A DNA stretch of 63,823 nt, the filler included. It is 5 parts of 5 records of this genome, joined end to end, with 100 filler letters (N's around TTAATTAATTAA, not from the genome) between each part and the next. Parts side by side here need not be neighbours in the genome. Positions count along the whole stretch, not along the records: positions 1 to 20,532 come from DRR378314_1341; 4 more parts are not named here. One strand, written 5' to 3'. Made by a program: the position numbers and the translations under genes. Shown piece after piece: positions 8,701 to 32,450 of this stretch. How positions within the stretch are numbered: position 1 is the first letter of the stretch; every line of letters starts with the position of its first letter. The notes under the pieces are model-generated. The model was not told the origin of the DNA and did not search any database. It saw nothing but the letters and a program-made list of their open reading frames with translations.

Positions 8701-9220
8701 CATCCGATTCGTACCCCAGCATCGGTACTGGGAGGTGGCTTGCACCAGTGTGTTTGCTATCCTTTCGCTCACCATAGCATTACTCGATCTAGTTCCAAGA
8801 CTGCAAATCACCATTGCGCTGCTACTCGTAATGGCGCTTCTCGCGGCGCATGTGCAACGCACGCCGTATGCAAACGCAACACTTGCGGCATTCGAAGTGA
8901 CCACCCTGTGCGGTCTCGCGCTGGCCGTAGCCGCACGAGCAGGTGCCGTCGATCGTCAAGTGCTTCGGAGCCTTTTCCCCGCTGATGAAAGCAATATTCA
9001 TACAATTGAGGGATTACTGGATATTTCGGCTGCGTACATGCCCATCGTAGCTGTACTGACGGGGCTCGCTGCTACTGCAGTAGCTGGAACTCGTCTTCAG
9101 TACAGCTCGGCGCGTGCAAGAGACCTCGTCAAGGTCAAGCGTCGGTTCCAAATCGACTCGCACGGATCGGTGCGTTCCCGAGCAAACGTGTGCACATGTG
9201 AAGAGTACAAGGTTTTTTAA
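2744..9220 (+). CDS. Giant multidomain membrane protein: EGF, Ig/cadherin-like (Big_9-type) repeats, two LamG/ConA-like domains, FBXL4/pappalysin-type beta-sandwich, Cys-rich TNFR/ephrin-receptor-like repeats, multi-pass TRP-like C-terminus (main exon; 5' exons unresolved)
   Basis: Uninterrupted 2144-aa ORF, open back to a tag| acceptor at 2743. EGF CPTWDGSVCSGRGVC...CACDEGYRGEAC; YRPDPLFTGTDTFT and NDPDGDMLTY Ig repeats; WHHIAL and WQHVALSY LamG motifs; tandem CxxCxPGTF repeats at ~6930-7440; several hydrophobic helices with LYIRF...YWE and PY motifs. Confidence 0.85.
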   Translation: MTLTSWARSGTFLLVPFVARKPGECPTWDGSVCSGRGVCQVAWLDVDVSACACDEGYRGEACEIKTPVVQNRAIRVDSSGIASITLAIEGSAAAPSVRIATNPQHGTLYAQGAGGTAVGLPLVAGPKLGTLSLAYRPDPLFTGTDTFTVIATSADGFDSDPGSIVVTVPTLGAIGIVTGESGGLAAAVEPGQAATAFSLAPPDGEEQASLLTGFTTLAWVRVLSSDPPAVATELSSTIASPSTEKRETVALFSVADARGSVLQFRSKDGAANVLWQPHGGSAVSWDAPLSAVVADRAWHHIALLVTDTEIGILLDGIPVLRENTIEIDGQIALHGETALVLGSSATDAPVHIGLHMAHFMLWDGALDGSEVRTVLQSKNNRLLLSFSASLLAEYRFDEFTEHDGGAVPQSPARVPARLPLAAAVDILRIPSNAASFDFSLRCKTVPEPYDVSFTIDMSAAPQQGWVFGRDSGTPLPTSNTAANSFDVAVAAELTYKWGAAPPEPLTENNLLGYQRSAHPLATVGGAAGLPQGTDAIMYTCTSTGRSASAVLLLVRNNRPASTAGEAEVLENASAMIRMDKFANDPDGDMLTYYVSSTPQRGELKMLTGQALARADGDEPAHIDDAYGRLVYTPNSDVIAPAQDEFRFFASDGVDVSETHAVVITILAIDKLPEPTPTTLTVEQDTQAIVNLPGLDANGDVFSAIVTAWPQHCDIYQTDGTPIDPHSEPEIPLALWASSCSASSAYRSAGRWSCEAALGAPDVLDASGRSLFREDGRAWAPALPGDADETIQFGFDRCLYPQSIHVYQNFGPTGTFSRIRALDCASGTWRDIWAPFNEPSPTDPSTTAGVAASGAYERWSPILCNVSFATKLVEISMRKHGQSSSFYVQIDAVQLVGSVLPPAGVVASATRSLILRPHSRYHSYISPTGDYVDRNTLAISDTLRFRVKSCTVQSNDVAASISVQKMAPHLHVAGPGLALRMDGVSDTARVRLSTSASNLVRNAAGVTLQAYFLVCEDAILRDSVPLLTAESDDTSGTPCEFGLELRYDHESAQWQVGAFLRATTNQSSGARLSCSIQVPRTTTCTWQHVALSYRSRTGTLSLILDGVEEGSASRGCAEALQLCAPSALLIGGATRSAVHMAGAVDSVVFLAAPRPADLVRDIAGTGLPANDPALVAGVSFDDSLFDPATAAVQSAAGAGAASLELAGDPKDFYAGVERRGTMRGPERVISSAPMRGGGLLNVMGHAGEYIEATVQASNSDNELFVAARESNPALEPDMQGASGTLIRVSSALLALELRSLNLDNESQSGTWSTVPGTGPSTVESGDEDRASEAQIDMPLPHAQGSADTGATAWALRVLPPPSWRGKYTVTLRIVADNTHATEYTASADAEVNFIIVCKPGWALHPTDSTRCIECPQGTFSSSPDAPQCKACEPGTFASDPASTQCTSCPPGTFASTLAASTCSPCQPGTFAASAGQAECQRCPPGYAAGQTEATACTACDPFSYADTQGREACLPCPAFTRARGTSATDVTMCECDRGFYHPRGARGLACTPCPAGALCEGGSALPRPRAGFWADPTAWIAPADHVRTVMSDSDTVSRDATAARALRLPSAIATVDGLAGHHRPVTPLPLAHGVTPILLVCPDSVCTEPSDGLPTTCSHGRAGVQCRACASGWWRSAPWACARCDTTGVQAAMFPAALEAVLYALAIATAGRGSRAPVYTLLRYIQGLALIASIGDGSGQGALQPGSSWMSVAQIALFSGSAVPWSCTAPLLQLEDVTEGLQSGAITAWLRYQGSDEISYNALWSHGTVYRVIWIAALPLLVWLLAKLAIALLVIRTHVAPRLERLTARRNPSLHMQLLHTTWGRFFVSSPTEDDLQVARERATSVAVHALWLSVPGAVLYGASLLAWQTGASPAQGGGGVELRANRHFPEIIAAPSPPFLLTAIGAALCAVFGVAVPSVFAWIISHYQQASLLTNTAVKGRFHMLYIRFVPQHRYWEVACTSVFAILSLTIALLDLVPRLQITIALLLVMALLAAHVQRTPYANATLAAFEVTTLCGLALAVAARAGAVDRQVLRSLFPADESNIHTIEGLLDISAAYMPIVAVLTGLAATAVAGTRLQYSSARARDLVKVKRRFQIDSHGSVRSRANVCTCEEYKVF

Positions 9221-9400
9221 AGCAAAGTCTGCCGTTGCTGTCGCAGGACTCGGCAAACGTCCGTTAGTCTTTGGAGACAATACTGCTTGCGCCCACCGCC
9301 ATCGGACGACTGCTCTTGACTAGAAGCGTGTGTTGGCGTTCGAGCTCAATCACGCGATCGTCGCGCCGTTGAAAGTAGACAACGTGCGACTGTGTGCTCG

Positions 9401-10346
9401 ATGTGGGACAACAGCCCATGCATTACCCGTACCGCAGTATCACAAGAGACTTGCAAAGAATCAAGCGCGATTGTGTGTTGTGTGAGCCGTCGCACGCGAA
9501 TGCAGACAGAAAGCGCGTGCGCAAACGCCATAGGCACCCACAGTTGTCTGTCTCCTTGCTGCATCAGGTAGCAGCCGGGTATGCGTTGGCGAGTGCGAAT
9601 TGCTGTCCGAACATTGTAATGAAGCTGTTCGTACGTACGCATCTCCCCATTTCTTTTTGCGTGCGATCGTGCAGTTTGACTTTGCAGTTGAGCCACTCGT
9701 ACTTGGAGAATGGCTCTTGCACGCGTCATCGGAGCGCGTGCAGGCCTTCCGCCATGTCCGCGACGCCATTACTTTCGCAGCTGCATCCGACATAGGTGAC
9801 AAGCTCTCTCCCTTTGCAATGGAAGTACCGTTTTTGCTGAATGTATTAGTATTTGGCAGCTCTGAACAGCGCCAAGATCTCGTAAAAACTATTGAGCTTG
9901 TGCATCAAGTATGCAGCGAGGCGCCACGGAACGATCTGGACCTACGCGCTCTAATTGACCGAGTCCATGCAGCGCAGGTCTGCGCTCTTGTTCTGCGCGC
10001 AAGCCCCCAGGAACGCGACAGCTTGGGCACAGTAATGGCTGATCTGCTCTCATTTTCTAAAAATGAGTACACGGTACGCATACAACAGCACCGCTCTGGT
10101 CTGCAGCGTGGTGTTGACGCAATCCTGCGCGCGGGCAGACGGCAGGGAAAACGGTACATGCACACTTCGGCGTTCACGCGGCAGAGACGCCAGTCTGACA
10201 TCGAGGAAGCAGCTGGGCTCGCGCGCGCTGGGGCCGTCTCCAGCCACTCGCAACGTACTTCTGCTGCCGAGCGCTCAGCATCACGCCCGGTTTCATTTGA
10301 AGATGCCATGCGAAAAGCAGTGCAACGATACTCTGTTGCGCAATAG
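9401..10346 (+). CDS. Hypothetical protein, two-exon model (~268 aa)
   Basis: join(9401..9428,9568..10346): ATG, GT donor at 9429, pyrimidine-rich cag acceptor, phases compatible; includes the 248-aa ORF 9600-10346. No family recognised. Confidence 0.5.
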
Positions 10347-11233
10347 CGCTACGGCAGCAACGGTTCGGAGTGAAAGAGGTACCATTATTCTCGCCGACCC
10401 GTAAAAGGAAAGAAAAAAATCGGTAGGAACGATCACGGCGCGTTGGGCCAGCCAGCGCAGCAGCAGTGACTACCAACTTTCACTGTACAATAATGATGTG
10501 AAACACTGCACAATGTGGAGTAGATCCATTTCTTGTAAACTGCATTCTCTCTTTGTAGAGAGCGCAAAAGAGATGTGCACGGGCAAAGAGAACATCACTC
10601 TGCACGTGTTTCGGGCATACGCGCATTATGCGGTCCCCTATTTCGGTTTAGGCTTCAAGTTCCATCTCCGCAACACGCTCGCATCCTTTTTTTTTCGGTA
10701 ACGCATGAAATGAGAAAGCAAAATACAAGCAATGAGATTTTTCACGTAGTGCCAGCAAAACGACATGATGGCACGGAAAGCTACTCGACCCGCGCACAGA
10801 GAAATAAGGTACACCAAAAGCGAGGCGAGAGCAAGATACCGCTTGCGATAGCCGACCAGCGCATAGTCACGCAACTGCTGCACGGCCGCGCCTGCACTAC
10901 CCTTCCGCATGGTGACCTGTACATTTTATTTCAACAATTGCACCGTTCGCCTCCAAACACCAACATATATCACGAGACGTGCATGCTTCGTCGCAGAAAC
11001 CGCTTGGTAGCAGAGGGGGGAATCACTGGCGCGCCGTAAGGCAACATGGTGCAGCGGTTGCTAGCATGCTCCTGTGCTCTGTTGCGCACGGGAACGTGCA
11101 TGCCCGACCGCTCACAATTGAAAATAGTAGAAGACGAGCCGGTCTGCTTAGATGCACGACATTCGACGCTGTGGTTTGCCCTGTACCCGCACTCGCCCAT
11201 TGGCGTCATGCTACACTTGGCTAAGCGACTGCG

Positions 11234-13582
11234 CTACTCGCCCACGGCGCGACCGACAGAATGCTCCGTAAATGCCTTCTTGCCAAGTGCACGCTCCTCC
11301 TCGTCCACTTTTTCCCATGAAAATCGCGGAATCTCTTCATTGCGAAGAAAATGTTCAATATCGGATGGCGAGTCTATATACGTCAGACATCTGCGATGCT
11401 CTTGGCAGATTCCAAGAATATCTGCGAGCGGAATTTCAGGAATCCCAGCGCCGACCGCCCGACACGCCTTAGCACACCACGAGGGCCGGAAAGCAACGAC
11501 CTCGGCAGAGAGGGTGCTGCGGTACACATGGGAAAACTCCCCCACAGTTACCACGCGAAACTATGCAGAAAGATCATCTCCAAGTACCTTGTTCGTCGGC
11601 ACTCTGTAAAAGAATCAAACGTAAGGCTCGTGGGAATTTTTAGTGTGCCGGTCTTTCCCAGGGTGAGAAGCGTGTGGGATTGATTTTTTCAGCGGCAACT
11701 CGTTTGTGGACGTGCATGCGCACAATAGTCGCACACGATGCGCGCTTCGCTCGTGTCGCCATACCCTGGTACGGAAATACGGTTACTTAATGTACTTCTG
11801 AGATAATGTGTACCTAACACCAACCAGCACAGCAGCCAGAAGGTCGAGGATGGAGAGGGTAGTGTGCACACGCCGTACCAGAGCAAGACTGAACAACGCG
11901 CTCCCACGGGTCTCGGAAAGCCAGAATCGGCCGAACCGCACGACCCGCAAGCGGATCCGTGCTGCGTACAGTACCATGCGTGGTAACAGAGAACGAAGAC
12001 ATCATTGAGAAGGTTAACCAATTTATATCGCAAGTGATGTCGTTTGCGAAGCAGAGGTTTGCGCAATGGATCTGCGTGTGGACGAATGTGGTAGCCGGCA
12101 GCTCGCGCGTAACAGCGAAGATCAATAGCGACGAGCAGAGCAGAGATGTCTGCGCTTCACCGATTCAAAACGTACGTCGCGACATTCCAAGCTAGTACAA
12201 GCTCTCCCAGCGTTCCAACCGTTCCTGCATTTGTACATGTACCCACCAATCGTGACGAATGCTTAGAGCGTACCAAATTACATGTAAAGAGGTAGTAATT
12301 TACGCAGCGGCATAAACAATACGCATACTGGAGCGAGAAGGGAGCAATCTCGTCGGCGAGTGACGGCAACACTCCCGTGCGCGGCGGATACAAACACTCT
12401 ACACGAAACTCTGATCCGCTCATGAGCAAATGCACGAGAAAGAAACGTCGAGTACCGATCGCGTGTGAAAAATTCACCAAAGGTAAATGTACAGCAACGC
12501 AGCGCACCTGGAAGAGCAATCACGAAGTCCGCTCGACAAAGTCTCTCAATACGCGCGTGCAGATTTGTGGTCGGAACCTGCATCGCGGCAGTGAGGTGGG
12601 TGTTGCAGCCCGTGTATGTAACCGCTGCACATTGCATGATAAGGATGCACTCCCTTTTAAATACCGCAATGACATCCACCGTCTGTCATCGGCGACATTA
12701 GCAACGTACACGCGGACAGAAGCCGTGGATATGCAACCGAGTGTCGCTCTGCTTCCGAAAGGAGCCGTGCCCAGTGCGCCGAGCAGTCGCTTCGCAATTC
12801 TTTAGTCCAGCGAGAGACATGCACACCTTACCGTGTACCACTGGTGTGCGAGGAGTACACATGGCACGAATGCGCATAGAGCAAGAGACTATCGTAATAT
12901 AGTGAACAGGAATAGCTCAACAGTTGCGTACCTCGCAGTGCACATGGGCATTTGGCTCTTTCCAGTACGGAAACACCGGTGGGCATGTTATCGCTCGCAC
13001 CAAACCGCCTTCCGCAGCAGCACCTGCCGAAACAGCCTCCATTGACCTGCCCATGGAACACGTGCAGCAGTGTATCGAAGCTGTCATTAAAGGACATTGC
13101 CCTGTCACGAGACGATCGAGCCGTCTTTCTGCGGAACGGGCGGGTTTCTTGTCCAGCGAAGGTGACGCACATTTGGAGAGGACGGGCGAACCGGTTTTGC
13201 CCCCTGAGTCAGCGCAGTATGTCCTTGTGACTCCGCGCAGCCCTCGTCACCGCCCACCAAACTCGATGGTCACTCACGCGAAGGAAGCTACCTACTCCGT
13301 GTCTTGATCGCGCGAACGATGATCGAATGGCATTTTCTTTACTTGACAGAGAGGCTCTTCTAATGTAGTTCTCATTCACCACAACAGGGCATACTCGCAG
13401 CATCGCGCTCCAAGGTCGCAGCACCTTGCCACGTACCCGTGGTTGCCCCCCGTTTGGACCTCGCACCCTGCACGTCCCAATGCCCGCCCGACCTCTTCAG
13501 CTTGTCGCCATTGCGGATCACCCGGCTGTGAGCGGGAGGAACCAAATACGCTTGCAACGAGTGGTCGTTTCTCAGCACTCAT
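11234..13582 (-). CDS. LOG/SLOG-family nucleotide phosphoribohydrolase ('lysine decarboxylase-like'), six exons, 216 aa
   Basis: complement(join(13437..13582,12932..13046,12508..12577,12176..12224,11879..11961,11234..11421)), 651 nt, all introns GT-AG with consistent phases. Reads VFGSSRSQPGDPQWRQAEEVGRALGRAGCEVQTGGNHGSMEAVSAGA...LHARIERLCRADFVIALPGTVGTLGELVLAW...YIDSP. Confidence 0.88.
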
Positions 13583-15695
13583 CGCTCCCTGTCTGCGACA
13601 AAGCGCTGGTCGCACGCACCCGCACCCACCTATGAGCACAAGAGAGCGGGCAAAGGGCAGGCACTTGCCGTCCACTTCCGTCCGTGACAGTGTTGTCCTG
13701 CGGTCCCATTCATTGCATTCCCTACCCCTCACTGCGGAATCTATTTCCGCGGTGGATGTACACTGTGCACGTGCGCGAAGGTGTGCTACTGGGAGGAGAG
13801 CACCACGCGGCGCACCGTTTGCTTAATCTCGTAGGAAACGCAGGGGAAGCCGTCGAAGTCACGCATACTGCGCAGCCGGCCAGAGCATCGGCGCTGCTCT
13901 CACCTTGCCCTATCACCTACTGTGCGTTTTATACATCCGTACGCATATCGTGATGCTGGGGCGCATCGGCATCCCTCACCGCAGCCGCAGGTAGTGCGGC
14001 GGCGTGCTAGGCGTCCGGAGCACCGGGTAGGCCGGGGAGGCGTGAGCCAGTTTGCTACTGTGCGACCAGGCAGTGCCCGCACCCTCCCCCCTTTCCCACG
14101 CCCACTTCTGCACCGCAGCTATCCTCTCTCGCCGCTAAGTCTTTCCACAAAGATATCATAGACAAGGCACACTGCGTCGTGCATAGCCAGAGCATGGGCT
14201 CGGGTAGTGCGTGCCCATATTGCGAAAGAACAGCAAGGCACGCTGGTTTCTGTGCCGAGCCAACGTACAAGCTGGTTCCGCGATAATGTACGCGGAAGCT
14301 GATGGTAGCATAGCATCTGGTGCAGCGCTGCGTATCCCACCCCGCCACACGCAACGCTCTCGAACCCCCAATAATGTCATAGGACTGTACGCCACAGTGG
14401 TTAAGCTAATACGAAGCAATCGAAATCGCTGTACCAACGCCAACTCGCTTGCTGCCGAAACCGCCCCCCCCCAAAGCGCCGGAGGGCAACTCGTTTTAGG
14501 CGTCGGCGGACGACTTTGGTCCGTTACCACGCGCGAAGACCCCACGCCATACGCTTGATTTATTTCGGAGTACTTGACAAGCGACAAGTCATCGCTTGAA
14601 AGTTCAATAATTCCAGCAGAGTAAATAACGGGAGTCCCGAATATCGCTGCTACGAATACAACGGCAGTGCGATACCCGCGTGCGCAGACCGCACGATTTG
14701 CCGCTACGGCATTCAGAACCGTGGCAAACCGGCAATCGCGCCCGGCAGACGTACGTCAGATGACATGCATACTCGCCTTTTAGGCCTGTGCACTCGCCTG
14801 ACAGCGTACGGATAGCAGGCCGAAGGGCGCGCCAGGCGCTGATAGCTGGACGGGACCGCCAAACCGTGCGTGCAGCCTAAAGCATCGTACACAGGCTAAG
14901 CGCTCAATGCGCAATGTTCACTGAGCTCAAGCGACATCGATTGATCAAGGTGCCAAAGGCGACCGCAAAATGCTGCGAGTTTCCCTTTGAACCTTGCACG
15001 AGTGAGCACGTGATTTAAGGAAGGATGCACTAGGTTCATCCCCGGCCCAGAAGTACACACTGTCGGCCCCACTGATGCACTGCGAAAGCACCTGGTTTAG
15101 GCGCTATCGTAAGCCGACCAAGAAGAGCAGCATCACGATAAAACAAAACGGATGATATATACAGCTCGTTGCGTGCATAAATACACGGCTTGGAATCTCC
15201 TGTGCAAAGGCGCACTTCCTGGCAACTGATGTTGCATCGAGGAGCCGATGGAATTTCGTCGACTGCGCAAGAAGAGCTCCCAAGAAACCGCACGAGGCGT
15301 ATACTCCCAACTTTATCGTCCCTGTGTGTGCGCGCTTAGCGCGAATTGCGGTTACTTACAACCATGCCAGCGCTACAGCTCGTACTTTATACACGTTCCA
15401 TGCATCTGTGGTAGACCCGGCCCCCCTTTAGAGAAATCTGATACATCTCCTCTGCGGCAAAGATTGCGCGCCGCACGCGCAAAGCGGCACGGGTATCCTC
15501 GCCAACTTTCAGAACCGCTTCGCAAGGAAATAGGCGACGCATCAAAGCACGCAAAACCACCCTCCCCCCGAAGAAAAGACCGAGCGACGATGAATCTGGA
15601 GGAAACAACCCAGTATTTTCCAGATCACAACATTTTTTACAACACAAGAAGAGTGCTCGAGTGCATAGCGTGGAGCAGCACATCGGCTGCGCCTG

Positions 15696-18449
15696 TTAGT
15701 CGCGGCGCATCTCTTCAGCCTCGCCCGGTTCGGGATGCGCGCTCCGCTGATCAGCAGCAGGCTCCTCAGGCGGGGACCCCGGCTGCTGCACGTGTGATAA
15801 GTACTGCGAGGCAAATGCAGTGAGCTGCACCTTGCACTCAATGAGGTCCGAGATATCTTCTGGGAAAAGGAGCTCTGAGGAGACCACCTGCGCCCACTGC
15901 GGTTTGGCACGCTGCGTGCTCTCCAACGCGCACATTACCGCTGCGGCAGCTACCACGCGAGCCGCGTACCGCACAAACACGGGGGCGCGATACGATGCTT
16001 TGAGAAACCACTCACACGCGCTCGGAAACGAGACCCCGTTCGTGGTCTCCGGCGTTCCGGGAAACTTGGCCCAGAGCCAAGGTAGAAATGCGTACGGCGA
16101 GCGAGCGCTGCTGTCGCCCAGCGCTGCCGTCATATCGTCCACAAGTCGCCAGACATCCTCCACCGAACGACGGCAGCGACACACGGATGCAAGAACAGTT
16201 GCGGGGTAGTATCGCATCTCAACGTCACGCACGGCACACACTAGCGCAGCTACAACGCACGCATCTAAAAAGCTAGGGTCGATCGCAACAATGTTGCAGA
16301 ACACGTCGAAATGGCGCACAGCATACGAAAGAGTCCCTTTCGAAAGACAGAGATTCGCGACAGCATCAACAAGGCGTTCAACGTGCTCATTGCGCAGCGG
16401 GTTCCCTGTTGCCGATACGTCTGCATTCTCGTCTCCAAACCAGACCGCGCGCCCGTCTGCATCTGCGCGATACTTTCTGCAGAGAAGGTCGACTTGCTTG
16501 CTTACGAGGGAAGACGAAAGGCCGTGCGAAAGGTCCCAGTATGGTTGGCGCTCGGCAGCGCGCGAGGAAACGGGCGCTGCCGCCCGGTGCTGCCGCTCGC
16601 CTGTGCGCCGCTCGTGCTCAACCCACGACGGCAAGCTGCAGCACTGCTCTCGGCCACATTCACGCGCGTCTGCAGAGGGTGCCGATACGTCTACATCCCT
16701 GTACGAATGCGCCAGCCCCATTTCCGTGGAAAATCTCTCGTGGTTGGAAACGTATCGCTGCGTCGACGAGCTGGCCAGCGGGGCCATCGTGTCCGTAGCA
16801 GGCACTCTGCGTGCGGCGTTAAGGTCAGCACGGCGCCCGTCTCCAGCTCGCTGCGGGAACACGCGATCCACCCGCTGGCGCCGGAGGGCGTACATGGGCT
16901 CTTCGATAGAAAGGCCATGCGCGGCTATAGATACCCGACGAGCTGCAGATCTGTATGAAGCAGTCGATACCTGTCCTGTCCCATCGAAATGAAGATGCTG
17001 CAGCGAAACCAAGTTGCGCAATGCCGACCGGATGCCAGAGTCGGTCACACGCGAGCATCGCCCGACATCCAAACTGCGCATCCTCGGGAAGCGCTTCGCA
17101 AACTGCAGCATCGAGTGGTTAGAAATCCGACAGCCGCGCACGTCGAGAACCTCCAGAGTTGGAATGATTTCGCTTCCGTAAAACGCTGCATCGTTCACAC
17201 GCTTGCATCCGCGTGCGCAAAAAACGCGCAGCTTTTCGCACAATTGGAAGACCTTGAACACAAAATCACTCGTGGCAAGGAGACGGCTGTAGCTTACGTC
17301 GACACGCTCGACCGTCGATGGCGAGCTAAACAGCCGCTGCGCACACAACGGCCGAAGGTTATTGCAGCTGATGATCGAAATACTGCGCAACGGGTGCTGC
17401 ACGCTGAGAACATCCTCCAGCGTCTCATCCGCCATAAGGTGTAGCCCTGCAAGTTCAACCGTGTGTAGTCGCGTCGACGCGATTCTCCGCTCGTTTCGAA
17501 TCCACGGTACAACCTTGACGCACCCCTAAAAATAACAGAACAGCGCAGTGCGCACCGACAATAACGATTAGTAAGCAGACATCAACTTGAACATGTAACA
17601 GATGAAACCACGGATAGTGCGGGAAGCGAAACGAAAATCGATTCCCGGCGGAAAAATAAAAGAGGATGCCGCGGGAGGAAACAGACCGAGCTGACAACGA
17701 GGCAGCAAGCGGGCGGAGAATGGTGCGGGTCAGCTCGCAGCGTTCTTGCACCAAGACGAATGTACGGCGAACCCACGGTTTCTGCCCACCGCTGGTTTCG
17801 CCCGCACAGTTGCACTTGTGTTTCACCGGATTTGATCGCTCCCCAAAGAAGCTTTGACTCATCAGACTCGTACCCGGAGAACAAGATGCTCCAGTGCTTC
17901 GTTTTCAAGAAGGCGATCCACGGTTTCCTGCTCGAGGTTCGGGCAGTCTTCGAAGCACAGAGTTTCGAGCGCGGGAGGCACAAACACTGCGCCCCGCAGA
18001 AAATTCGCCACTCGCTCCGTTTGCGCGACTCGTATATGGCGAAGCTCTGAACAGCATTCCAGTACAGTAGATATCGCCTCGTCGTCGACGCTGTGGCAGC
18101 CAAAGAGATTCAGCGACGTGACTTTGCTACAAGCGGGCGCCACAGACCGTACCGTCCCTGACGTCACCAACGGGAAGCCTTCGAAACTCAAGTGGCGCAT
18201 CTGCTCCATACACGCCTGCGCTGTGTTCCTCCATTCGCGGCACACGAGCGGCACGGATCCTACCAACGTCTTACTGTCAATCAAAGAAAAAATGTGCAAC
18301 ATCACTTCTTTCGGAAGAAGTTCAAAGGAAGAATGCGAGGTGCATGGCGCACACGCGCGCCGCGCTCGTTTTGACCTGCGCGTTCCGGGCGCACCGGCGC
18401 GACGAGGTGAGCGGCGCCGTTCCCCTTGGCTGCGACCGTCGGTGCTCAT
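15696..18449 (-). CDS. F-box + leucine-rich repeat + C-terminal cyclin-fold protein, two exons, 801 aa
   Basis: complement(join(17874..18449,15696..17525)). Donor cgg|gtacga and acceptor tttttag|ggg give LEHLVLR|GCVKV, continuing the LRR. F-box LLPKEVMLHIFSLIDSKTL...VCREW; Cys-containing LRRs (LDVRGCRISN, LDVGRCSRVTD); cyclin box-like LRNEHVERLVDAVANLCLSKGTLSYAVRHFDVF. Confidence 0.82.
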
Positions 18450-18545
18450 GGGACTACTTCGCGACCACCTCGGGCCCTGCTGTGGTTATTCGAAAGCCGA
18501 TCAATCGAAGGAAAGCACGTTCTTCAGTTCATAAGCAGGTGTTCC

Positions 18546-20016
18546 ATGCGCCGCATACTACGAGAGGACGCACGGGATCGAAGCGCAATACTACACAGAA
18601 ATGAGCACGTAGCGCACAGCCCCTTCGCCCTGCCTGCCCTCTTCCAAGAGCGAAACAAAGACTCCACTCTATTGCGACCTGATAATCAGCGCGCTGCTAC
18701 GTCAATCCGTGATGCTCCGAAAACAAATACACTTGGCACGCTCTTCGTGACTACAGAAAGCAAGGTGCTTGGTAGGGGGGCTCTTCCATTCCACCCGTGA
18801 AAGCTACGGCTGGGGAGTAGGGTGACGGTGCTTCTGGTAATCAAAACACGAACGTCGGCATGAACTTGCTGCCGCACTGCGGCGCAGCACCGCAGGTTGC
18901 GCAGTGCATCTGCGTTTGCTCGTATCCTGCAGCACCTCCCGCGCTCAACATCCCGACCGCAGTGCTCCGTACTGCACCCGACTTTTTCGAAACAAGTAAC
19001 GCTCATCTACAAGCAGTTCAATCGGTATTTCACTGAGATAATCTCTAGAGGAGCCTTACAGACTGGCATCGTCGGAACAGCTGACGTTCAGTGCGCAAGG
19101 CTTCGCCTCCTGCCGGGGAGTATGTCGGGCACGCCGCAGGACGGAGGTTCCCGCTCCGGTTCGCCGTCCGACGGCATTCCGTCCGAAATGTGAGTACACG
19201 GTTGAAGTCTCATGCTTTCTCTCATATAATGTGGCTGCACAGTTCGATTGATTGATGTGTGGTCTGCGCACGCTACTTAGAGCGGGTGCCTGTGGCTGCC
19301 TCGGTGCGTCGGCGCTACGGGAGTGGCGCGAGGAGCGTGCGCTGTTCTTCCTATCAGAAGGCCGCTGTCTCTGGTCCTTCTTTGCGGGTGCAATCGAGGC
19401 AAGCCGTGGCATAACTCGCACCGCGTAATTGTAGTGCTTCAAAACAACGCGTAATGCGATGCTCACCTTTTGGTTTTGCTGACCTCGCTGCAGGTCGCAG
19501 TTTGCCAGCGCTCTTGGCGGCACTGCGGAAACGCTCCAACAGTCCATTGCCGGCGCGTACGAGACAATGGCGTCGTCCCTGCAGCAGAGTATGGGCATGA
19601 TGAACAAAGTCAACGTGCTCATGGAAGAGTATCTCACACAGTCGCTCTTCATCGGTATGTGTTTCGGTTTTCATTGTGTTGGAATGCCGATGACCCGGCG
19701 AAGGTGTCACGCGCATCTGTGACTCCCAGAGGGCGTGCTGTATCCACCGAGCAAAACTCCGCGCGACTCCAGGTCGAGCGAGATGTGCTTGCAGTGACGC
19801 GCGTGTTCAGCAAGCGTGATCTCGTTCCCGCCCCCTTTTGTCGCTCACTGCGGTCGCTGCCGTGTACCATGATGTTTTGTATTACGTTGCAATGTAGAAT
19901 CATCTGTACGCGCAAGCGATTCGGACGCTTGTACGAAGATATCCGTAGTCCTCACAAACCGTGCACGTCTACCGCTCCATGGAATATCCGTCACCTTCAA
20001 GCTGCGGCACCCACAG
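18546..20016 (+). CDS. Multi-exon hypothetical protein, 3' partial
   Basis: Candidate exons 18546..18608, 18690..18771, 18997..19090, 19494..19654, 19898..20016 have GT donors, AG acceptors and mutually consistent phases, giving a stop-free protein (…IYKQFNRYFTEIISRGALQTG…MMNKVNVLMEEYLTQSLFIESSV…ISVVLTNRARLPLHGISVTF). Start and end uncertain. Confidence 0.55.
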
Positions 20017-20508
20017 GTACGGAAGAGACGGCGAGCGAGCGAGGCTGCTCTCCCCGCAGCTCTGCGATGTGGAGCTCACGGGAAAGGCAACTCCCTATTT
20101 TCGTTCGTCTGTAACACCTCATTGCATTCTTTAACTCGCCATACCGTAGGAGGAGGCGGAAATCGACTTGGAGAGCCTTGCGCTTTGGAGGGTGCGAGGG
20201 GCAGAGGCAGACATGTCACTCGCAGCCGGCGAAAGCGCCTCCGTCTTAGGTACGCCCTGCTCTCTCTCTCTCCCTATCTCGCCTTTCTCGCTGAACCGCC
20301 TCTGTTCTCGATTTCTTTCCACACATATGTTTGGTGGAGACGCATTGGGTAGTCACCTCAGTGTATTGGTGCGGTCGGCATCCGCATTCGTTGAAGTATA
20401 TTCGATCGCTAGGTGTGCGGAAGGCTCTATGCGTTCGCACGCAACGACGGCTTCAGAAGGTCACCAGCGGGATGCCATATCAGTGAGGGAGAAAGAGTGA
20501 GCAGAAAA

Positions 20509-20532
20509 GAGAGAGAGAGAGAGAGAGAGAGA
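20509..20532. repeat. (GA)n microsatellite at the contig 1 end
   Basis: Pure GA run ending at the N gap. Confidence 0.9.
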
Positions 20533-20632
20533 NNNNNNNNNNNNNNNNNNNNNNNNNNNNNNNNNNNNNNNNNNNNTTAATTAATTAANNNNNNNNNNNN
20601 NNNNNNNNNNNNNNNNNNNNNNNNNNNNNNNN
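20533..20632. other. Artificial contig linker (44N-TTAATTAATTAA-44N)
   Basis: Identical 100-nt structure four times; TTAATTAATTAA puts stops in all six frames. Confidence 0.98.
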
Positions 20633-20987
<355 letters not shown>

Positions 20988-21037
20988 TCGAGGATTGTCA
21001 GCATCTTGCTGGTAATATTTAAAGTATTGGATGAGCT

Positions 21038-22198
21038 ATGACTCCTGGTGCCAGAGTGGCTGCGGCCATTGAGGTTTTGCATGATATGTCCGAAGGATTG
21101 GCCGCCGAACAGGCGCTGACCCGTTGGGCGAGACGCAGCCGGTTTGCCGGGTCCAAGGATCGTGCGGCCATCCGCGATCATGTCTTTGATGTGTTGAGAT
21201 GCAAACGCACCGCGGCGCATTTCGGCCAAAGCAATACGCCCCGCGCTCTGCTGATCGGGATTTTGCGCCAGCAGGGCGCTGATTTGGACGCCTTGTTTTC
21301 TGGCATTGGCCATGCGCCCCAGCCCCTGAGTGAAGCAGAAGCTCAGGCACCGTTGCCGCCCGATGAGGAAGCCACCCTGTGGAACCTGCCGGATTGGTTG
21401 ATCCCGCTGTTCAAAGAAGCTTTGGGCGCGGAGGCCGGGACCGCGGCCATGGCATTGCAAGAACGTGCGCCGGTTTTCCTGCGGGTGAATATCGCAAAAA
21501 CTGATCGTGCAGCGGTGATTGCCCAGCTGGCAGGGGAAGGGATCATCGCAGAGGTGAATCCGCTTTGTGACACCGCGCTGAGCGTTACCGAAGGCGCGCG
21601 CAAGATCCGCAATTCCGCCTGTTACACCGAAGGGCTGGTCGAGTTGCAGGATGCGGCCAGTCAGGCGGTTGTGGCCACCCTGCCGACGGGTGCGAAACTG
21701 CTTGATTATTGTGCGGGTGGGGGTGGTAAGGCGCTTGCCGTGGCCGCGCAGCAGGGGCGGCAGGTCTTTGCCCATGACATTGATCCGCGCCGGATGGCGG
21801 ATTTATCCGTACGGGCGGAACGGGCAGGGGCTGCAGTGACCCAGTTGGACAGTGACGCGCTGCCTGGTGCTGCGCCTTTCGACGTTATCTTATGTGATGC
21901 ACCTTGTTCGGGGTCCGGCGCATGGCGGCGTGCGGCGGAAGGAAAATGGACGCTGACAGCAGCGCGGCTTGCTGAGTTGACTGCCATTCAGGACAGTATT
22001 CTAGACGAGGCGGCGGGTTTGCTTGGCGATCAGGGCACCTTGGCATATGCGACTTGTTCGCTGCTTCGGGAGGAAAATGAAGATCGGGTTGCGGCGTTTC
22101 TGGCCCGTCATCCCGGATGGCGTTGCAGCGAGCAGCATCGCTATGCGGTGGGGCCGGCGGGCGATGGATTCTTCGAGGCACACTTGATGCGTGATTGA
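21038..22198 (+). CDS. RsmB/NOP-family SAM-dependent RNA m5C methyltransferase
   Basis: ELQDAASQ, DYCAGGGGK, DAPCSGSG, YATCS, ENE motifs. Confidence 0.93.
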   Translation: MTPGARVAAAIEVLHDMSEGLAAEQALTRWARRSRFAGSKDRAAIRDHVFDVLRCKRTAAHFGQSNTPRALLIGILRQQGADLDALFSGIGHAPQPLSEAEAQAPLPPDEEATLWNLPDWLIPLFKEALGAEAGTAAMALQERAPVFLRVNIAKTDRAAVIAQLAGEGIIAEVNPLCDTALSVTEGARKIRNSACYTEGLVELQDAASQAVVATLPTGAKLLDYCAGGGGKALAVAAQQGRQVFAHDIDPRRMADLSVRAERAGAAVTQLDSDALPGAAPFDVILCDAPCSGSGAWRRAAEGKWTLTAARLAELTAIQDSILDEAAGLLGDQGTLAYATCSLLREENEDRVAAFLARHPGWRCSEQHRYAVGPAGDGFFEAHLMRD

Positions 22199-22239
22199 TT
22201 TTGTATATTTTCAATCATGACGTGCGATTCTAAACGCAG

Positions 22240-22255
22240 TTAAAGGCTGATTAAC
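22240..22255 (+). promoter_or_regulatory. CtrA-binding box upstream of cckA
   Basis: TTAA-aggctga-TTAAC is an exact TTAA-N7-TTAAC match, ~30 nt before cckA. Confidence 0.75.
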
Positions 22256-22283
22256 CCTTCGTGCGCGTAATAGGGGACGATTC

Positions 22284-24611
22284 GTGCATGCCAAGGGGAC
22301 CTCTTTGCCCGACACCCAAACCCAGCGACCGAAGCGCTCAAAGCAGTTAAGCGGTGCTGCGCGTCAGGCCCGTTGGACCCTGGCGATCTGCCTGTTTCTG
22401 GCGGCACTGGCACTTGTTGCCCCTTACCGGATGTTAAGCCTTGGCCTGATCTCCTCCTCTGTGACCCTGTTGGTTCTGGGGGGGCTGGTCTGGGCCCGCA
22501 AACGCCGTGCGCTACGCAAACAAAATGCCGAACTGGCGGTGATTGAAGGGTTCATACGGCGCGACGCCACGCCAAGCTTTGTGGCGAATGCAGATGGCCA
22601 GATCCGGTCTGCCAATCCAGCGGCGCATCAACAGTTCGAGATTGACGGGTTTAAGACATTGGCGGGGGTGCTGAAATCCTCTGTCGCCAATCCGGGCGGC
22701 ATTCTGTTCCGACTGCAATCCCGGGCGGTGGCAAGTGGCGCGGCACAGGAAGATATATTCACCCGCGCCGGGCATTTGCGCCTGTGCGTACATGTGGTGG
22801 CCGAAGATGCCTATGTCTGGCGGGTTGATCAGCAGGGCGAACGGGCACCACCGCGGGCGGCGCAGGAAGGGCAGCATCTGCCGATGGTCATGATTGGCCG
22901 CAGCGATGCCATCTTATTCATGAATGACGCGGCGCGGCGGTTGATTGGCAGCAGGGTCAAAGGGCTGGACCGGTTGTTCAACGTCCTGCCGGTGGTGCCG
23001 GGCATCCCCACTGACCTGATCACTTCAGACGGGCCGCAGCGGGTTCTGGTTGCAGAGGTAACAGCAGGCGCGGGGCGTCGGGCGCTGTATTTCCTGCCGG
23101 TGCCGGAACAAGCGGTTTCCGCGCAGGGCTGGCAGGCCTTTGAGGATCTTCCGGTGCCGCTGATCAAAGTGGCCCCGGATGGCAAGGTGAAGACCTTTAA
23201 CCGGATGGCGGCAAATCTGGTGGGGGTGGCCTTGGAAGATAATGTGCATCTTTCCAATCTTATGGAAGGTTTGGGACGTTCCATTGCGGATTGGATCAAT
23301 GAAACGCTGGCCTTCCGCAAGGTACAGAAATCAGAGTTCTTGCGGCTGAAGCGGACAGACCGAGAAGTGTTTGTGCAGGTCGTTCTGAGCCATGTTATGG
23401 ATGAGGGCGAACCCTCCTTGGTTGCTGTTTTACATGATGCAACGGAGCTGAAAACACTGGAGGCGCAGTTTGTCCAAAGCCAGAAAATGCAGGCAATCGG
23501 GCAATTGGCCGGTGGTGTGGCGCATGATTTCAACAATTTGCTGACCGCCATATCTGGCCATTGTGATCTATTGCTTTTGCGCCGTGATCAGAGTGACCCG
23601 GATTACGGTGACCTGATCCAGATCAACCAGAATGCCAACCGTGCTGCCTCACTGGTCGGGCAATTGTTGGCCTTTTCCCGCAAACAGACGCTGCGGCTTG
23701 AAACCATTGATATGCGGGATACTTTGGCGGATTTGACGCATTTGCTCAACCGTCTGGTGGGGGAGAAAATCACCCTCACGCTGACCCATGATCCGGTATT
23801 GAAACCGGTGCGGGCGGACAAGCGGCAGCTGGAACAGGTGTTGATGAACCTTGTCGTCAACGCCCGTGATTCAATGCCCGCGGGCGGGGAAATTCGCGTC
23901 ACAACGGAATATATCGAGCTGAAGGAACCACTGGACCGGGACCGCGCATCGGTCCCCCCCGGCCAGTATGTCACGGTGCAGGTCAGTGATGATGGGGCGG
24001 GGATTGCCCCGGACAAGCTGCAAAAGGTGTTTGAGCCATTCTATACCACCAAACGCACCGGCGAGGGCACTGGATTGGGCCTGTCGACCGCCTACGGGAT
24101 CATCAAACAAAGCAATGGCTATATCTTTGTCGATTCTGTGGTGGATAAGGGCACAACCTTCATTCTTTACCTGCCGGTCTATGTCACGCAGCCGGCCAAG
24201 ACCCAAAAGGTGCCGGACAAGGTGATGGCAACGCCGCAGCAAAGTGAGGAGGGGGTCATCCTGCTGGTTGAGGATGAAGCCCCGGTGCGTGCCTTTGCCA
24301 GCCGTGCATTGCGGTTGCGGGGATATACGGTGTTGGAGGCGGATTCCGCCGAGGCGGCATTGAAAACGCTTGAGGATCAGTCGCTTAGCATAGATGTTTT
24401 TGTGACCGACGTGGTGATGCCCGGCATGGACGGTCCAAGCTGGGTGCGCGAGGCGCTGAAAATCCGGCCTGACGTGCGGGTGGTGTTTGTCTCTGGCTAC
24501 GCCGAAGACAGCTTTGGCGAAGAACAGACCCGCATCCCGAATTCGGTCTTCCTGCCCAAGCCGTTTTCACTAAGTGATCTGACCGAAACCGTGCAAAGCC
24601 AACTGCATTAA
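22284..24611 (+). CDS. cckA: Hybrid sensor histidine kinase CckA (2 TM, PAS, HisKA, HATPase, REC)
   Basis: QSQKMQAIGQLAGGVAHDFNNLL H-box, EPFYTTK..GEGTGLGL, receiver LVEDE...TDVVMPGMDG; location next to recA fits Rhodobacterales synteny. Confidence 0.9.
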   Translation: MHAKGTSLPDTQTQRPKRSKQLSGAARQARWTLAICLFLAALALVAPYRMLSLGLISSSVTLLVLGGLVWARKRRALRKQNAELAVIEGFIRRDATPSFVANADGQIRSANPAAHQQFEIDGFKTLAGVLKSSVANPGGILFRLQSRAVASGAAQEDIFTRAGHLRLCVHVVAEDAYVWRVDQQGERAPPRAAQEGQHLPMVMIGRSDAILFMNDAARRLIGSRVKGLDRLFNVLPVVPGIPTDLITSDGPQRVLVAEVTAGAGRRALYFLPVPEQAVSAQGWQAFEDLPVPLIKVAPDGKVKTFNRMAANLVGVALEDNVHLSNLMEGLGRSIADWINETLAFRKVQKSEFLRLKRTDREVFVQVVLSHVMDEGEPSLVAVLHDATELKTLEAQFVQSQKMQAIGQLAGGVAHDFNNLLTAISGHCDLLLLRRDQSDPDYGDLIQINQNANRAASLVGQLLAFSRKQTLRLETIDMRDTLADLTHLLNRLVGEKITLTLTHDPVLKPVRADKRQLEQVLMNLVVNARDSMPAGGEIRVTTEYIELKEPLDRDRASVPPGQYVTVQVSDDGAGIAPDKLQKVFEPFYTTKRTGEGTGLGLSTAYGIIKQSNGYIFVDSVVDKGTTFILYLPVYVTQPAKTQKVPDKVMATPQQSEEGVILLVEDEAPVRAFASRALRLRGYTVLEADSAEAALKTLEDQSLSIDVFVTDVVMPGMDGPSWVREALKIRPDVRVVFVSGYAEDSFGEEQTRIPNSVFLPKPFSLSDLTETVQSQLH

Positions 24612-24612
24612 T

Positions 24613-25206
24613 TCAGGGGATCGAGGCATATAGATCAAACTCTTCTGCACATTTCTTTTTGAAACGCCGCGCCACGTCATCCGAAAGGGCCAGCGCCATC
24701 TTTGGGGATACGTTTTCCTGTTTCAGGATCAATTCAACATTAAGTCGCTCTTCCAGAAAAGACCGCAGCCGGGGTTGATCCTCATAGCGGAAAAAATGCG
24801 TGACGCCGGTGCCGTTTGGCTGGGTCTTCATGAACTGGAACTGGCTGCCGACATCCGCAAAACCCGGTTTCTTGCCTTTCATATAGGCCAGCACAAAATC
24901 GTCAAAGCTGACACCATGGGTGCTGTTGGGTTTGCCCTCCATAAACGGGCGTTGGCGATACCTGTACCAGCTGCCGAGCCATGATATAGGTTCGCGCATC
25001 ACGGCCATCACTTCCAGCTCGGTATTACACACCCGTTCAAACATCGGTCGGATGAAGCGGTTGTAGCGATAGACAGGCGCGTGTTTCAGCATGGGTGGTT
25101 CGGAAATCACCATATCCGCGCGCGCTGCCAATGCGGTCTCATAGGCGGTTGTGCCTGTCTTGGGCACCGATAGAAACGCAAGGCGTTCCTTATAGAAAAC
25201 AAGCAT
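24613..25206 (-). CDS. Sulfotransferase-like (family 2) conserved protein
   Basis: AFLSVPKTGTT (5'-PSB-like) and MREPISWLGSWY (3'-PB-like) motifs. Confidence 0.7.
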   Translation of the reverse strand: MLVFYKERLAFLSVPKTGTTAYETALAARADMVISEPPMLKHAPVYRYNRFIRPMFERVCNTELEVMAVMREPISWLGSWYRYRQRPFMEGKPNSTHGVSFDDFVLAYMKGKKPGFADVGSQFQFMKTQPNGTGVTHFFRYEDQPRLRSFLEERLNVELILKQENVSPKMALALSDDVARRFKKKCAEEFDLYASIP

Positions 25207-25249
25207 TTGAGGGCCCCGCCAATAGAAACTGCACCTGTCAGGTCTAGCG

Positions 25250-25265
25250 TAAACGACTTTTTAAC
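25250..25265 (+). promoter_or_regulatory. Near-consensus CtrA box in the recA divergent intergenic region
   Basis: TAAA-cgacttt-TTAAC, one mismatch to TTAA-N7-TTAAC. Confidence 0.45.
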
Positions 25266-25307
25266 CAAAGAGGGAAAAAGATGGCTGTAGAAGAATTATG
25301 TTGAAAT

Positions 25308-25344
25308 GTTCTCGCTTTGGTCTCATATGGAACATTAGCAGAAC
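25308..25344 (+). promoter_or_regulatory. Alphaproteobacterial LexA (SOS) boxes upstream of recA
   Basis: Exact GAAC-attagca-GAAC at 25330-25344 plus degenerate GTTC-tcgcttt-GGTC at 25308-25322. Confidence 0.85.
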
Positions 25345-25408
25345 ATATGACAGTGGACGGTGAGAGATTGCCGATGCCACAACACTATGACACTAAGGGA
25401 ACAGGCAC

Positions 25409-26479
25409 ATGGCAACGGCAGATCTTTTGACAATGACAGATAAAAAAACAGCGGAAAAGCAAAAGGCGCTCGATAGCGCGCTGGCGCAGATTGAGCGGCA
25501 ATTCGGCAAGGGGTCGATCATGAAACTGGGCTCCGAAGGGGCCATTCAGGACATCAAGGCCAGCTCGACCGGGTCACTTGGCCTGGACATCGCGCTGGGT
25601 ATTGGCGGTTTGCCAATGGGCCGGATCATCGAGATCTACGGGCCGGAATCCTCTGGTAAAACAACGCTGACGCTGCATTGCATCGCAGAACAGCAAAAGG
25701 CCGGTGGCGTTTGCGCCTTTGTGGATGCGGAACATGCGCTTGATCCGCAATATGCCAGAAAGTTGGGCATCGATATTGATGAATTGCTGATCTCGCAGCC
25801 CGATACGGGTGAACAGGCCTTGGAAATCACCGATACGCTGGTGCGTTCCGGTGCGGTGAACATGGTGGTTGTCGATTCGGTTGCGGCCCTGACGCCCAAG
25901 TCTGAACTCGAGGGCGACATGGGCGACAGCTCTGTTGGCGTGCAGGCCCGTTTGATGAGTCAGGCGATGCGCAAATTGACCGGCTCCATCTCGCGGTCAA
26001 ACTGCATGGTGATTTTCATCAACCAGATCAGGATGAAGATCGGCGTTATGTTCGGCTCTCCCGAGACGACATCAGGCGGCAACGCGCTGAAGTTCTACTC
26101 TTCCGTTCGTTTGGACATCCGACGCATCGGCGCGCTCAAGGATCGTGACGAGGTTGTCGGCAACGCCACACGGGTCAAGATTGTAAAAAACAAAGTGGCC
26201 GCCCCGTTCAAACAGGTTGAATTCGACATCATGTATGGCGAAGGCATTTCCAAGATGGGCGAGCTGTTGGATCTTGGTGTCAAAGTGGGCGTCGTGGATA
26301 AATCCGGATCGTGGTTCTCTTACGGGGACGAACGGATCGGGCAGGGGCGTGAGAATGCCAAACAGTTCCTGAAAGACAATGAAGCCATGGCGATGGACAT
26401 CGAGGATAAGATCCGCGCGGCGCATGGGCTGGATTTCGACGGGTCTGACAAGGATGACGCGGATATTCTGGAGGCCTAG
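25409..26479 (+). CDS. recA: Recombinase A
   Basis: [45 protein letters not shown]. Confidence 0.99.
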
Positions 26480-26644
26480 ATCCCGGTTGAATTCGGTCCG
26501 GCGGATCCATCTGATTGGCGTCGGTTAAGATTTGGGAAGGGGCGGGTCGAATTGACCTGTCCCTTTTCGCGTTCTGGGCTGTGGACACCCCATGCGCACA
26601 GGGCTATTTCTGGCAAACCGTAATCCCGCCCGGAAGGCCAGCCC

Positions 26645-29302: not shown

Positions 29303-29306
29303 GACC

Positions 29307-29594
29307 ATGGGCGCACTTTGGATTGCACATGTCACGGTGACGGATGAAGAGGCGTATAAGAAATACGCCGCTGGCGCGACTGTGGCGATTTCTGAGCACG
29401 GCGGCGAATTCATCGCGCGTGGCGGGCGGTTTGTACAACTGGAAGGTCGCGAACGCCCCCGCAATGTGGTTGCGCGTTTCCCGGACGTTGAAACCGCAGA
29501 AAAATGTTATCATTCAGATGCCTATCAAGCGGCGCTGGAACACGCCAAAGGCGCGTCCGAACGCGAATTGATGATCGTCGAGACATCCGAATAG
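29307..29594 (+). CDS. DUF1330 family protein
   Basis: HGGEFIARGG...LEG...RNVVARFP...YHSDAYQ pattern. Confidence 0.85.
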   Translation: MGALWIAHVTVTDEEAYKKYAAGATVAISEHGGEFIARGGRFVQLEGRERPRNVVARFPDVETAEKCYHSDAYQAALEHAKGASERELMIVETSE

Positions 29595-29597
29595 AAG

Positions 29598-29627
29598 AAA
29601 AGCCCCGAAGAAACTGCGGGGCTTTTT
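29598..29627. terminator. Bidirectional intrinsic terminator between the alaS operon and typA
   Basis: AAAAGCCCCG-loop-CGGGGCTTTT. Confidence 0.85.
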
Positions 29628-29683
29628 CATTTCTGATTTGTAGCGGGATGAGACGGAAAGCAACGGTTGCTTTCGACTTGCCC

Positions 29684-29733
29684 CTCTTTTTGGCTCTAAA
29701 TGCTGCGGAGGGTCCGGGAGGCAGAGCCTCCCG
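29684..29733 (+). repeat. Short palindromic repeat element (Rhodobacterales REP-like)
   Basis: ...TTGGCTCTAAAT...GGGTCCGGGAGGC-AGA-GCCTCCCG hairpin; a related inverted copy lies at 37110-37152. Confidence 0.5.
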
Positions 29734-29744
29734 AAATTCCGAGT

Positions 29745-31562
<1,818 letters not shown>

Positions 31563-31634
31563 GGGTTCAGCCTTGTTCAGGGAGTTGGGCGGGCCATACC
31601 GTGCAGGCGCAGCAAAGGCCAGATAAAAAGAAAG

Positions 31635-31970
31635 TTAATGTGTATTGCTGGCCGAAAAGAGGTGAATAATCAGGATTCCGCTGATGATCAGCGCCAATCC
31701 CAGCAGTGCCGGCATGTCCAGCTTTTGACCAAACAGTACAAATCCGATGCCTGCAATCAATACGATGCCCAGACCGGACCAGATGGCATAGACAATCCCG
31801 ACCGGCATCGCCCGCAGTGCAAAGGACATGCAGTAAAACGACAGCCCGTAAAAGACCACAACTGCCAGCGCCGGCCAGAACCGGGTAAACTGCTGTGAGG
31901 CCTGCAAGGCAGTGGTGCCCAGCGTTTCGGTCAGAATGGCAAAGAACAGCCAGATGTAATGGGCAGGCAT
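31635..31970 (-). CDS. SMR-family small multidrug efflux transporter
   Basis: Four TM helices, conserved TM1 Glu (AILTETLGT), PVGIVYAIWSGLG; start chosen at the ATG with an RBS. Confidence 0.92.
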   Translation of the reverse strand: MPAHYIWLFFAILTETLGTTALQASQQFTRFWPALAVVVFYGLSFYCMSFALRAMPVGIVYAIWSGLGIVLIAGIGFVLFGQKLDMPALLGLALIISGILIIHLFSASNTH

Positions 31971-31991
31971 GTCGCGTCCTTTCACGGGTCC

Positions 31992-32450
31992 TCAGAGGGG
32001 CAGGGCGGTGGTTTCCTTGATCTCTTCCATCACAAAACTGGCAGAGACATCAGACAGGGGCACCTTGGCAATCAGCCGTTGATATAACCGGTCATACCCT
32101 GCCATATCCGTGACCTGCGCGCGGATCAAGTAATCCAGATCACCCGACATGCGGTAAACGCCCATGATCTCTGGCATGCTTTTGGTGGCGGATGAAAACG
32201 CTTTTAACCAGTCAGCGGTATGCGAGCTGGTCCGCAGCTGGATGAACACGGTTAGTTTCAGGCCAAGGGCCTCGGCATCCAGAAGGGTCACGCGCCCTTT
32301 GATCACACCGGCCTTTTCCAGAGCACCAATCCGCCGCCAGCAGGCATTGCGCGACAGGCCCACCGTTTCGCCAATGGATTCGAGCGATTGCGCCGCATCG
32401 CGTTGCAGTTCGATCAGAATACGGCGGTCGATTGTGTCAATTTCTTTCAT
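31992..32450 (-). CDS. Lrp/AsnC-family regulator (DecR-like)
   Basis: IDRRILIELQRDA...VGLSRNACWRRI...YRMSGDLDYL...MEEIKETTALP. Confidence 0.92.
   Translation of the reverse strand: MKEIDTIDRRILIELQRDAAQSLESIGETVGLSRNACWRRIGALEKAGVIKGRVTLLDAEALGLKLTVFIQLRTSSHTADWLKAFSSATKSMPEIMGVYRMSGDLDYLIRAQVTDMAGYDRLYQRLIAKVPLSDVSASFVMEEIKETTALPL

Follow-up and report, generated by a model that had tools for sequence, protein, structure and literature searches.

Cell-cycle control is built on two pillars, SCF (Skp1-Cul1-Rbx1) ubiquitin ligases and cyclins, and to our knowledge the only well-studied protein that unites them is cyclin F. Skp2 works with cyclin A-CDK2-Cks1, as a separate partner. In this study, we analyzed a gene on the minus strand of a 63,823-base stretch of DNA (hereafter the window), which encodes a predicted protein of 801 residues. 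The predicted protein joins an F-box and leucine-rich repeats (LRRs) of the FBXL type to a C-terminal domain that we consider likely to be a diverged relative of the cyclins.

Cyclin F (FBXO1/CCNF), which is found in animals, is an F-box protein with a cyclin-type domain C-terminal to the F-box, and the protein described here shares this outline. According to the available excerpts of PMC12232547, a ten-helix domain (COD) separates the F-box of cyclin F from its cyclin box and covers the face for binding cyclin-dependent kinases (CDKs), and an intact MRYIL groove binds RxL motifs. In the same excerpts and in the abstract of PMC6792013, the cyclin domain is a substrate-binding module of the SCF ligase and not a kinase activator. 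The present protein does not have the cyclin F layout, in that about 12 LRRs and a linker of ~175 residues stand where cyclin F has the COD. The groove probably differs as well: under the 33-residue alignment to cyclin A that is described below, polar or charged residues occupy its positions here, whereas the MRYIL groove is intact in cyclin F as far as the excerpts describe it. Neither HMMER against 1.84 billion representatives nor phmmer against the PDB detected a relation to the cyclin F sequence. Judged from its sequence, the protein resembles cyclin F in outline and stands outside the cyclin F family. The available part of PMC3923393 does not say how cyclin F is distributed.

The second point of comparison is provided by FBXL2, FBXL17 and Skp2 (FBXL1), in which, as here, the F-box leads directly into Cys-containing LRRs of ~26 residues; these proteins are the best PDB matches of both exons. 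The similarity to these FBXL proteins of solved structure is confined to the F-box/LRR part, whereas the C-terminal domain shows none. In addition, cyclin A-CDK2 is a separate partner of Skp2, while the cyclin-like domain is fused to the receptor here. The original prediction, which was made from the letters of this DNA, had named no described protein with this three-part architecture, and our full-text literature search, which covered listings and abstracts, likewise returned no paper on a protein with an F-box, LRRs and a cyclin domain.

Gene structure and splicing

The gene comprises two exons and one intron, which together give a single frame of 801 codons. The features of the gene and of its presumed transcript are as follows.

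18488-18486, minus strand: in-frame stop 5' of the frame; the ATG at 18449-18447 is the first in-frame ATG after it
17874..18449, minus strand: coding exon 1, 192 codons
17526..17873, minus strand: intron of 348 nucleotides (nt), GT..AG type (GTACGAG...TTTTTAG); the AG is preceded by a pyrimidine tract, and the intron contains 7 in-frame stops
15696..17525, minus strand: coding exon 2, 609 codons (17525-15699) and the TAA stop at 15698-15696
15300..18632, minus strand: span covered by public sequencing run X1 in six co-linear contigs that are 100% identical and have no other joint; if X1 is RNA, the transcript spans at least this region
5' leader, minus strand: at least 183 nt within the X1 span, with three short upstream ATGs at 18556, 18547 and 18532

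The splice is supported by run X1, which contains 66% of the words sampled from the stretch. One contig of this run (record 4; 348 nt, depth 3.2) aligns to 17321-17524 and 17873-18016 and omits exactly 348 nt, and the joint has the ends CT..AC (cut +1) on the plus strand, corresponding to GT..AG on the strand of the gene. Inside the intron, the region 17599-17840 is without any X1 cover. The pieces of X1 along the gene are separated by gaps of 49 to 120 nt, all of which fall within the open frame, and the covered span extends at least 396 nt after the stop codon. A point against taking these contigs as transcripts is that X1 is labelled 'RNA?' by guess only, even though an intron-less contig fits an RNA library; among the runs listed for the stretch, none is recorded as RNA.

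A second line of support comes from the LRR register, which is unbroken over the junction. In the protein, the end of exon 1 (...LEHLVLR) and the start of exon 2 (GCVKVV...) together form an L..L.L..C..V repeat head, and the heads at residues 161, 186 and 212 (the last one placed by eye) keep the 25-26-residue period. The locus is therefore one spliced gene with two coding exons. The original prediction had joined two open reading frames (ORFs) into one 801-residue frame through a single GT-AG intron at 17526-17873 and had proposed that the LRRs run on across the junction; the coordinates agree with ours, record 4 of X1 contains the junction, and the repeat heads bear out the continuous solenoid.

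The three upstream ATGs at 18532-18556 (minus strand) begin peptides of 2-10 codons, which are possible upstream ORFs.

The F-box/LRR module and the domain layout

The protein was divided into the following segments, of which those C-terminal to the LRRs are candidate assignments.

18204..18323, minus strand: F-box (residues 43-82), LLPKEVMLHIFSLI...VCREWR; matched by PF12937 and aligned to the F-boxes of FBXL2 (6o60_C) and FBXL17
17874..18197, minus strand: the first four LRR repeats and the head of the fifth (residues 85-192), Cys-containing FBXL type
16926..17525, minus strand: remaining LRR solenoid (residues 193 to about 392), placed by the FBXL2/FBXL17 matches and the repeat starts
16401..16925, minus strand: R/A/S-rich linker (~175 residues, ~393-567), without a Pfam match and with low model confidence at the start of the first model
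16104..16400, minus strand: first cyclin-box-like half (residue 568 to about 666), starting with PLRNEHVERLVDAV; placed by Cyclin_N, the ESM Atlas and the 33-residue alignment
15798..16091, minus strand: second cyclin-box-like half (residues about 671-768), placed by Cyclin_C
15699..15797, minus strand: acidic, proline-rich C-terminal tail (33 residues), delimited by eye

The N-terminal assignment is carried by several matches. In Pfam, the F-box-like family PF12937 matches residues 43-77 with 30.4 bits, which is over its curated cut-off of 24.3, while PF00646 reaches 20.2 bits and is slightly below its cut-off of 20.5. Among solved structures, exon 1 matches FBXL2 (6o60_C; E=1.5e-13), FBXL17 (E of about 4e-8) and Skp2 (E=1.6e-6). 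The LPxE...I/L...VCxxW core is contained in the FBXL2 alignment (query 44-140 against FBXL2 15-111), which starts with LPKEVMLHIFSLID against LPKELLLRIFSFLD. The first ~190 residues of exon 2 match FBXL2 (E=9.9e-10) and FBXL17 (E=1.6e-6) in turn. In total, we counted about 12 LRRs over residues ~85-392; their heads lie 25-27 residues apart, and two of these, 212 and 291, were assigned by eye. By its F-box and LRRs, the N-terminal part is classed as a true FBXL-type module, and the F-box with FBXL-type LRRs that had been proposed earlier was thus recovered with the PF12937 match above the cut-off and the FBXL2, FBXL17 and Skp2 matches. Among longer proteins, the sole match of exon 1 was a Triparma LRR/IQ/WW protein (E=8.9e-17), which we attribute to LRR similarity and do not regard as an orthologue.

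The flanking segments have simpler compositions. A strongly basic stretch makes up the first ~40 residues and, judged by eye, likely contains a nuclear localization signal. The ~175-residue linker is probably disordered. The metagenome scan gave a single locus, L010, which matched the protein at 36% over linker residues 278-334 and was set aside as a low-complexity chance match.

The C-terminal domain and rival explanations

The last 283 residues show the two halves of a cyclin in Pfam. Cyclin_N (PF00134) matches residues 50-115 of this construct with 12.1 bits and E=0.16 (profile positions 29-94 of 127), and Cyclin_C (PF02984) matches residues 176-246 with 15.6 bits and E=0.016 (profile positions 24-90 of 119); with the whole of exon 2 as the query, Cyclin_C was matched at E=0.06. 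When the profiles are extrapolated to their ends, Cyclin_N reaches to ~148 and Cyclin_C begins at ~153, which leaves ~5 residues between them in the canonical head-to-tail order. As a control, we used 30 other ORF translations from the same contig (contig 1, window positions 1-20532), four of them antisense to the domain, and none matched a cyclin family at E<=1.

The ESM Atlas gave the same family. For the 283 residues, all 30 listed clusters are cyclins, 26 of them with Cyclin_N and Cyclin_C and the other 4 with Cyclin_N. The top score was 0.96 with 195 of 256 features in common, a value to be read against a calibration in which shuffled proteins reach 0.95 in about 1 of 100 cases and one third of them obtain ten top matches of the same family. 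With the first box alone (construct residues 40-152) as the query, Cyclin_N clusters were again retrieved; the best of them scored 0.92 with 166 features in common, and 26 of the 30 belonged to the Cyclin_N set.

A gapless 33-residue alignment to cyclin A had been put forward in the original prediction. This alignment has 11 identities in 33 positions and a BLOSUM62 sum of 32, and it ranks first among the 20,871 stop-free windows in the six frames of contig 1 (z 5.85), the next best having a sum of 22, so that this part of the prediction held. The weight of the cyclin matches comes from the fact that two halves of one family appear in the correct order and were predicted beforehand. Based on these signals, we consider it probable that the C-terminal ~230 residues form a two-box cyclin fold.

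Several results weigh against this assignment. Both Pfam matches are under the curated cut-offs (12.1 versus 23 bits for Cyclin_N and 15.6 versus 22 bits for Cyclin_C), which is why we call the C-terminus cyclin-like and not cyclin. Since the control ORFs also yielded unrelated chance matches (E=0.0011 and 0.024), a single cyclin E-value of 0.016 proves nothing. When the domain was searched against the PDB by phmmer, there were no cyclins and two unrelated matches with E>1, and an exhaustive HMMER search of the last 283 residues against the 1.84 billion representatives gave 0 relatives at E<=0.001. Because no relatives were found for an alignment, AlphaFold was run on single sequences, and both models are poor, with predicted local distance difference test (pLDDT) scores of 44.8 and 44.7. 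The first box has five helices in both of these low-confidence models (pLDDT ~45), and the helix counts are compatible with cyclin boxes. When the first model was used for fold searches, the matches were generic helical repeats and designed bundles without a cyclin, and we disregarded them because the model is too poor.

The other searches for relatives were negative as well. A word-index search with residues 370-609 of exon 2 found no relative, and a scan over contigs of prokaryote genomes likewise gave no match to the protein; the PF00134 profile had no match in the prokaryote genome described below or in 14 control genomes. The sole word-index match of exon 2, a Chara F-box/LRR protein (E=7.9e-4), was rejected as an orthologue.

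With respect to the fold, the original prediction of a degenerate cyclin box followed by a Cyclin_C-like part stood in that a diverged Cyclin_N/Cyclin_C pair is the best reading of the C-terminus; the fold itself was left below the cut-offs, without a PDB match and with a pLDDT of ~45. The modelling and fold-search route suggested there was divided in its outcome, since the first model, at pLDDT ~45, gave no cyclin match while the Atlas neighbors were all cyclin clusters.

Under the 33-residue alignment, the stretch facing the MRAIL helix of cyclin A is LRNEHVERLVDAV. In this one ungapped alignment at 33% identity, the MRAIL positions read L-R-N-E-H, and the groove positions occupied by I, L and then W in cyclin A are E, H and R. 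The classical RxL-binding groove thus looks lost, as polar or charged residues stand at its positions under this alignment. The earlier description of the MRAIL/W patch as degenerate is a fair one under its own alignment, with L-R-N-E-H at the patch and R replacing W. Acidic character is retained at the position of cyclin A E220, the residue that pairs with the Arg of RxL, where the present protein has D (numbering as in the available excerpts of PMC12232547).

Taken together, the two-exon gene probably encodes a protein with a basic N-terminus, an F-box, ~12 LRRs, a disordered linker, a diverged two-box cyclin-like domain and an acidic tail, which would act as an SCF receptor. As far as sequence can tell, the parts of an SCF substrate receptor are present. 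The F-box would dock on Skp1 of the SCF ubiquitin ligase, while target selection would be shared between the tethered cyclin-like domain and the LRR solenoid. Because the classical hydrophobic RxL-docking groove appears to be lost, the cyclin-like domain may bind another partner surface, or may hold a CDK-type kinase beside the LRR receptor. In the first version, which is the view of the original prediction, the domain would be a second, RxL-independent docking module.

A different explanation for the C-terminus is an orphan all-helical domain that is not a cyclin, with the weak signals produced by chance or by generic helical composition. We regard this as unlikely because four lines agree, namely the Pfam halves with their order and spacing, the whole-domain Atlas result, the first-half Atlas result and the top-ranked 33-residue alignment, and because 0 of the 30 composition-matched control ORFs match a cyclin family. 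An orphan domain would fit with both Pfam matches lying under the cut-off, with a PDB sequence search without cyclins, with control ORFs that give chance matches from E=0.0011 to 0.4, and with the Atlas calibration, in which shuffled proteins come close to the observed score and a third of them gather uniform top matches. It would also fit with the fold searches, which found helical repeats and designed bundles only, but the model behind these is too poor to count. It is doubtful, in our estimate, that the domain still binds a CDK-family kinase, so that the protein would be a covalent Skp2-cyclin unit in which priming phosphorylation and ubiquitylation are coupled, or in which the CDK is the substrate. 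The N-terminal part does match Skp2 (E=1.6e-6), and what we take to be the CDK-contact Lys position is R, while the presumed Glu position is V, or D with a shift of 1-2 residues anchored on the YP motif. The original prediction had placed R and V at these two positions by eye and had taken the protein as probably CDK-independent and as having arisen separately from cyclin F. The two positions could equally be R and D, which would be conservative changes, but the mapping is tentative and moves with a gap of 1-2 residues; moreover, the divergence is so large that a direct sequence search finds no cyclin.

The fusion itself could be an artefact of two genes, a mis-assembly or a chimeric window, and the window does consist of five contigs with N/TTAATTAATTAA/N linkers, one of which is 98% identical to a prokaryote genome. 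The gene, however, is wholly in contig 1 and distant from the linkers, the independent run X1 contains the junction in spliced form and follows the gene with co-linear pieces, and neither the frame nor the LRR register is interrupted at the junction. An artefact is therefore highly improbable and is largely refuted by these observations, and in what follows we keep to an FBXL-type receptor with a cyclin-like domain.

Genomic setting and significance

The window is made of contigs at 1-20532, 20633-40062, 40163-47928, 48029-57484 and 57585-63823, with GC contents of 0.569, 0.569, 0.662, 0.547 and 0.425, respectively, which are joined by four spacers.

20533-20632, 40063-40162, 47929-48028 and 57485-57584: artificial spacers, each 44 N, TTAATTAATTAA and 44 N

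Since these are separate contigs with artificial joins and with GC contents from 0.425 to 0.662, features should not be read across the spacers. The F-box/LRR gene is entirely within contig 1, far from every spacer. Nearly all of contig 2 (window 20633-39804) has 98% identity to a complete 4.4-Mb prokaryote genome (G001:C1:1504048-1523229), and the assembly thus combines bacterial DNA with the eukaryote-like contig 1. The same prokaryote genome had no match to window 1-20000, which is almost the whole of contig 1, and none to the F-box protein; against window 40001-60000 (contigs 3 and 4 with the beginning of contig 5), it gave one weak match of 65 bases only.

Contig 1 looks eukaryotic, based on the spliceosomal-type intron, the long non-coding stretches and an ORF of 2,158 codons with Ephrin_rec_like, Laminin_G_3 and EGF-like domains. 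In metagenome run X2, two short contigs correspond to 16828-17088 and 18639-18870 of the window, one identical and the other with 4 differences in 232 nt, which indicates that the organism carrying the gene, or a close relative, was present in an environmental sample.

Elsewhere on contig 1, the 2,158-codon ORF occupies 2744-9220 on the plus strand and contains Ephrin_rec_like repeats (E=1e-13), Laminin_G_3 (E=1.4e-13), Big_9 and EGF-like motifs, and its C-terminus is weakly TRP-channel-like and multi-pass. This ORF appears to encode a giant membrane protein, of a surface or adhesion type, in the same eukaryote as the F-box gene. The ~5 kb at 10350-15690, on the lower-coordinate side of the 3' end of the F-box gene, contain no frame above ~200 codons and gave no family match; either genes are sparse on contig 1, or intron-rich genes escaped recognition here. 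Contig 1 is closed by a (GA)n microsatellite at 20240-20532 that is preceded by CT-rich tracts, which probably caused the assembly to break at this end. Rfam and tRNA scans over the window found no RNA genes.

The FBXL module of the protein is itself ordinary, and it is likely the appended cyclin-like domain that makes the combination one we have not found described. The value of the finding is limited for now, as the searches found no relatives of the protein and the cyclin fold is backed by weak but concordant signals. As a tentative proposal, to which we assign a low probability, the protein may be a second, independent 'F-box cyclin' outside animals that is built on an FBXL/Skp2-type receptor and that would in effect fuse the Skp2-cyclin partnership in the Rosetta-stone manner. 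If this is true, the union of F-box and cyclin would have had more than one origin, with differing layouts, and the tethered domain would either recruit a CDK-family kinase, placing phosphorylation and ubiquitylation on one scaffold, or serve as a second, RxL-independent dock. The protein would then be a natural single-chain model of an LRR receptor and a cyclin surface that cooperate in the choice of a target.

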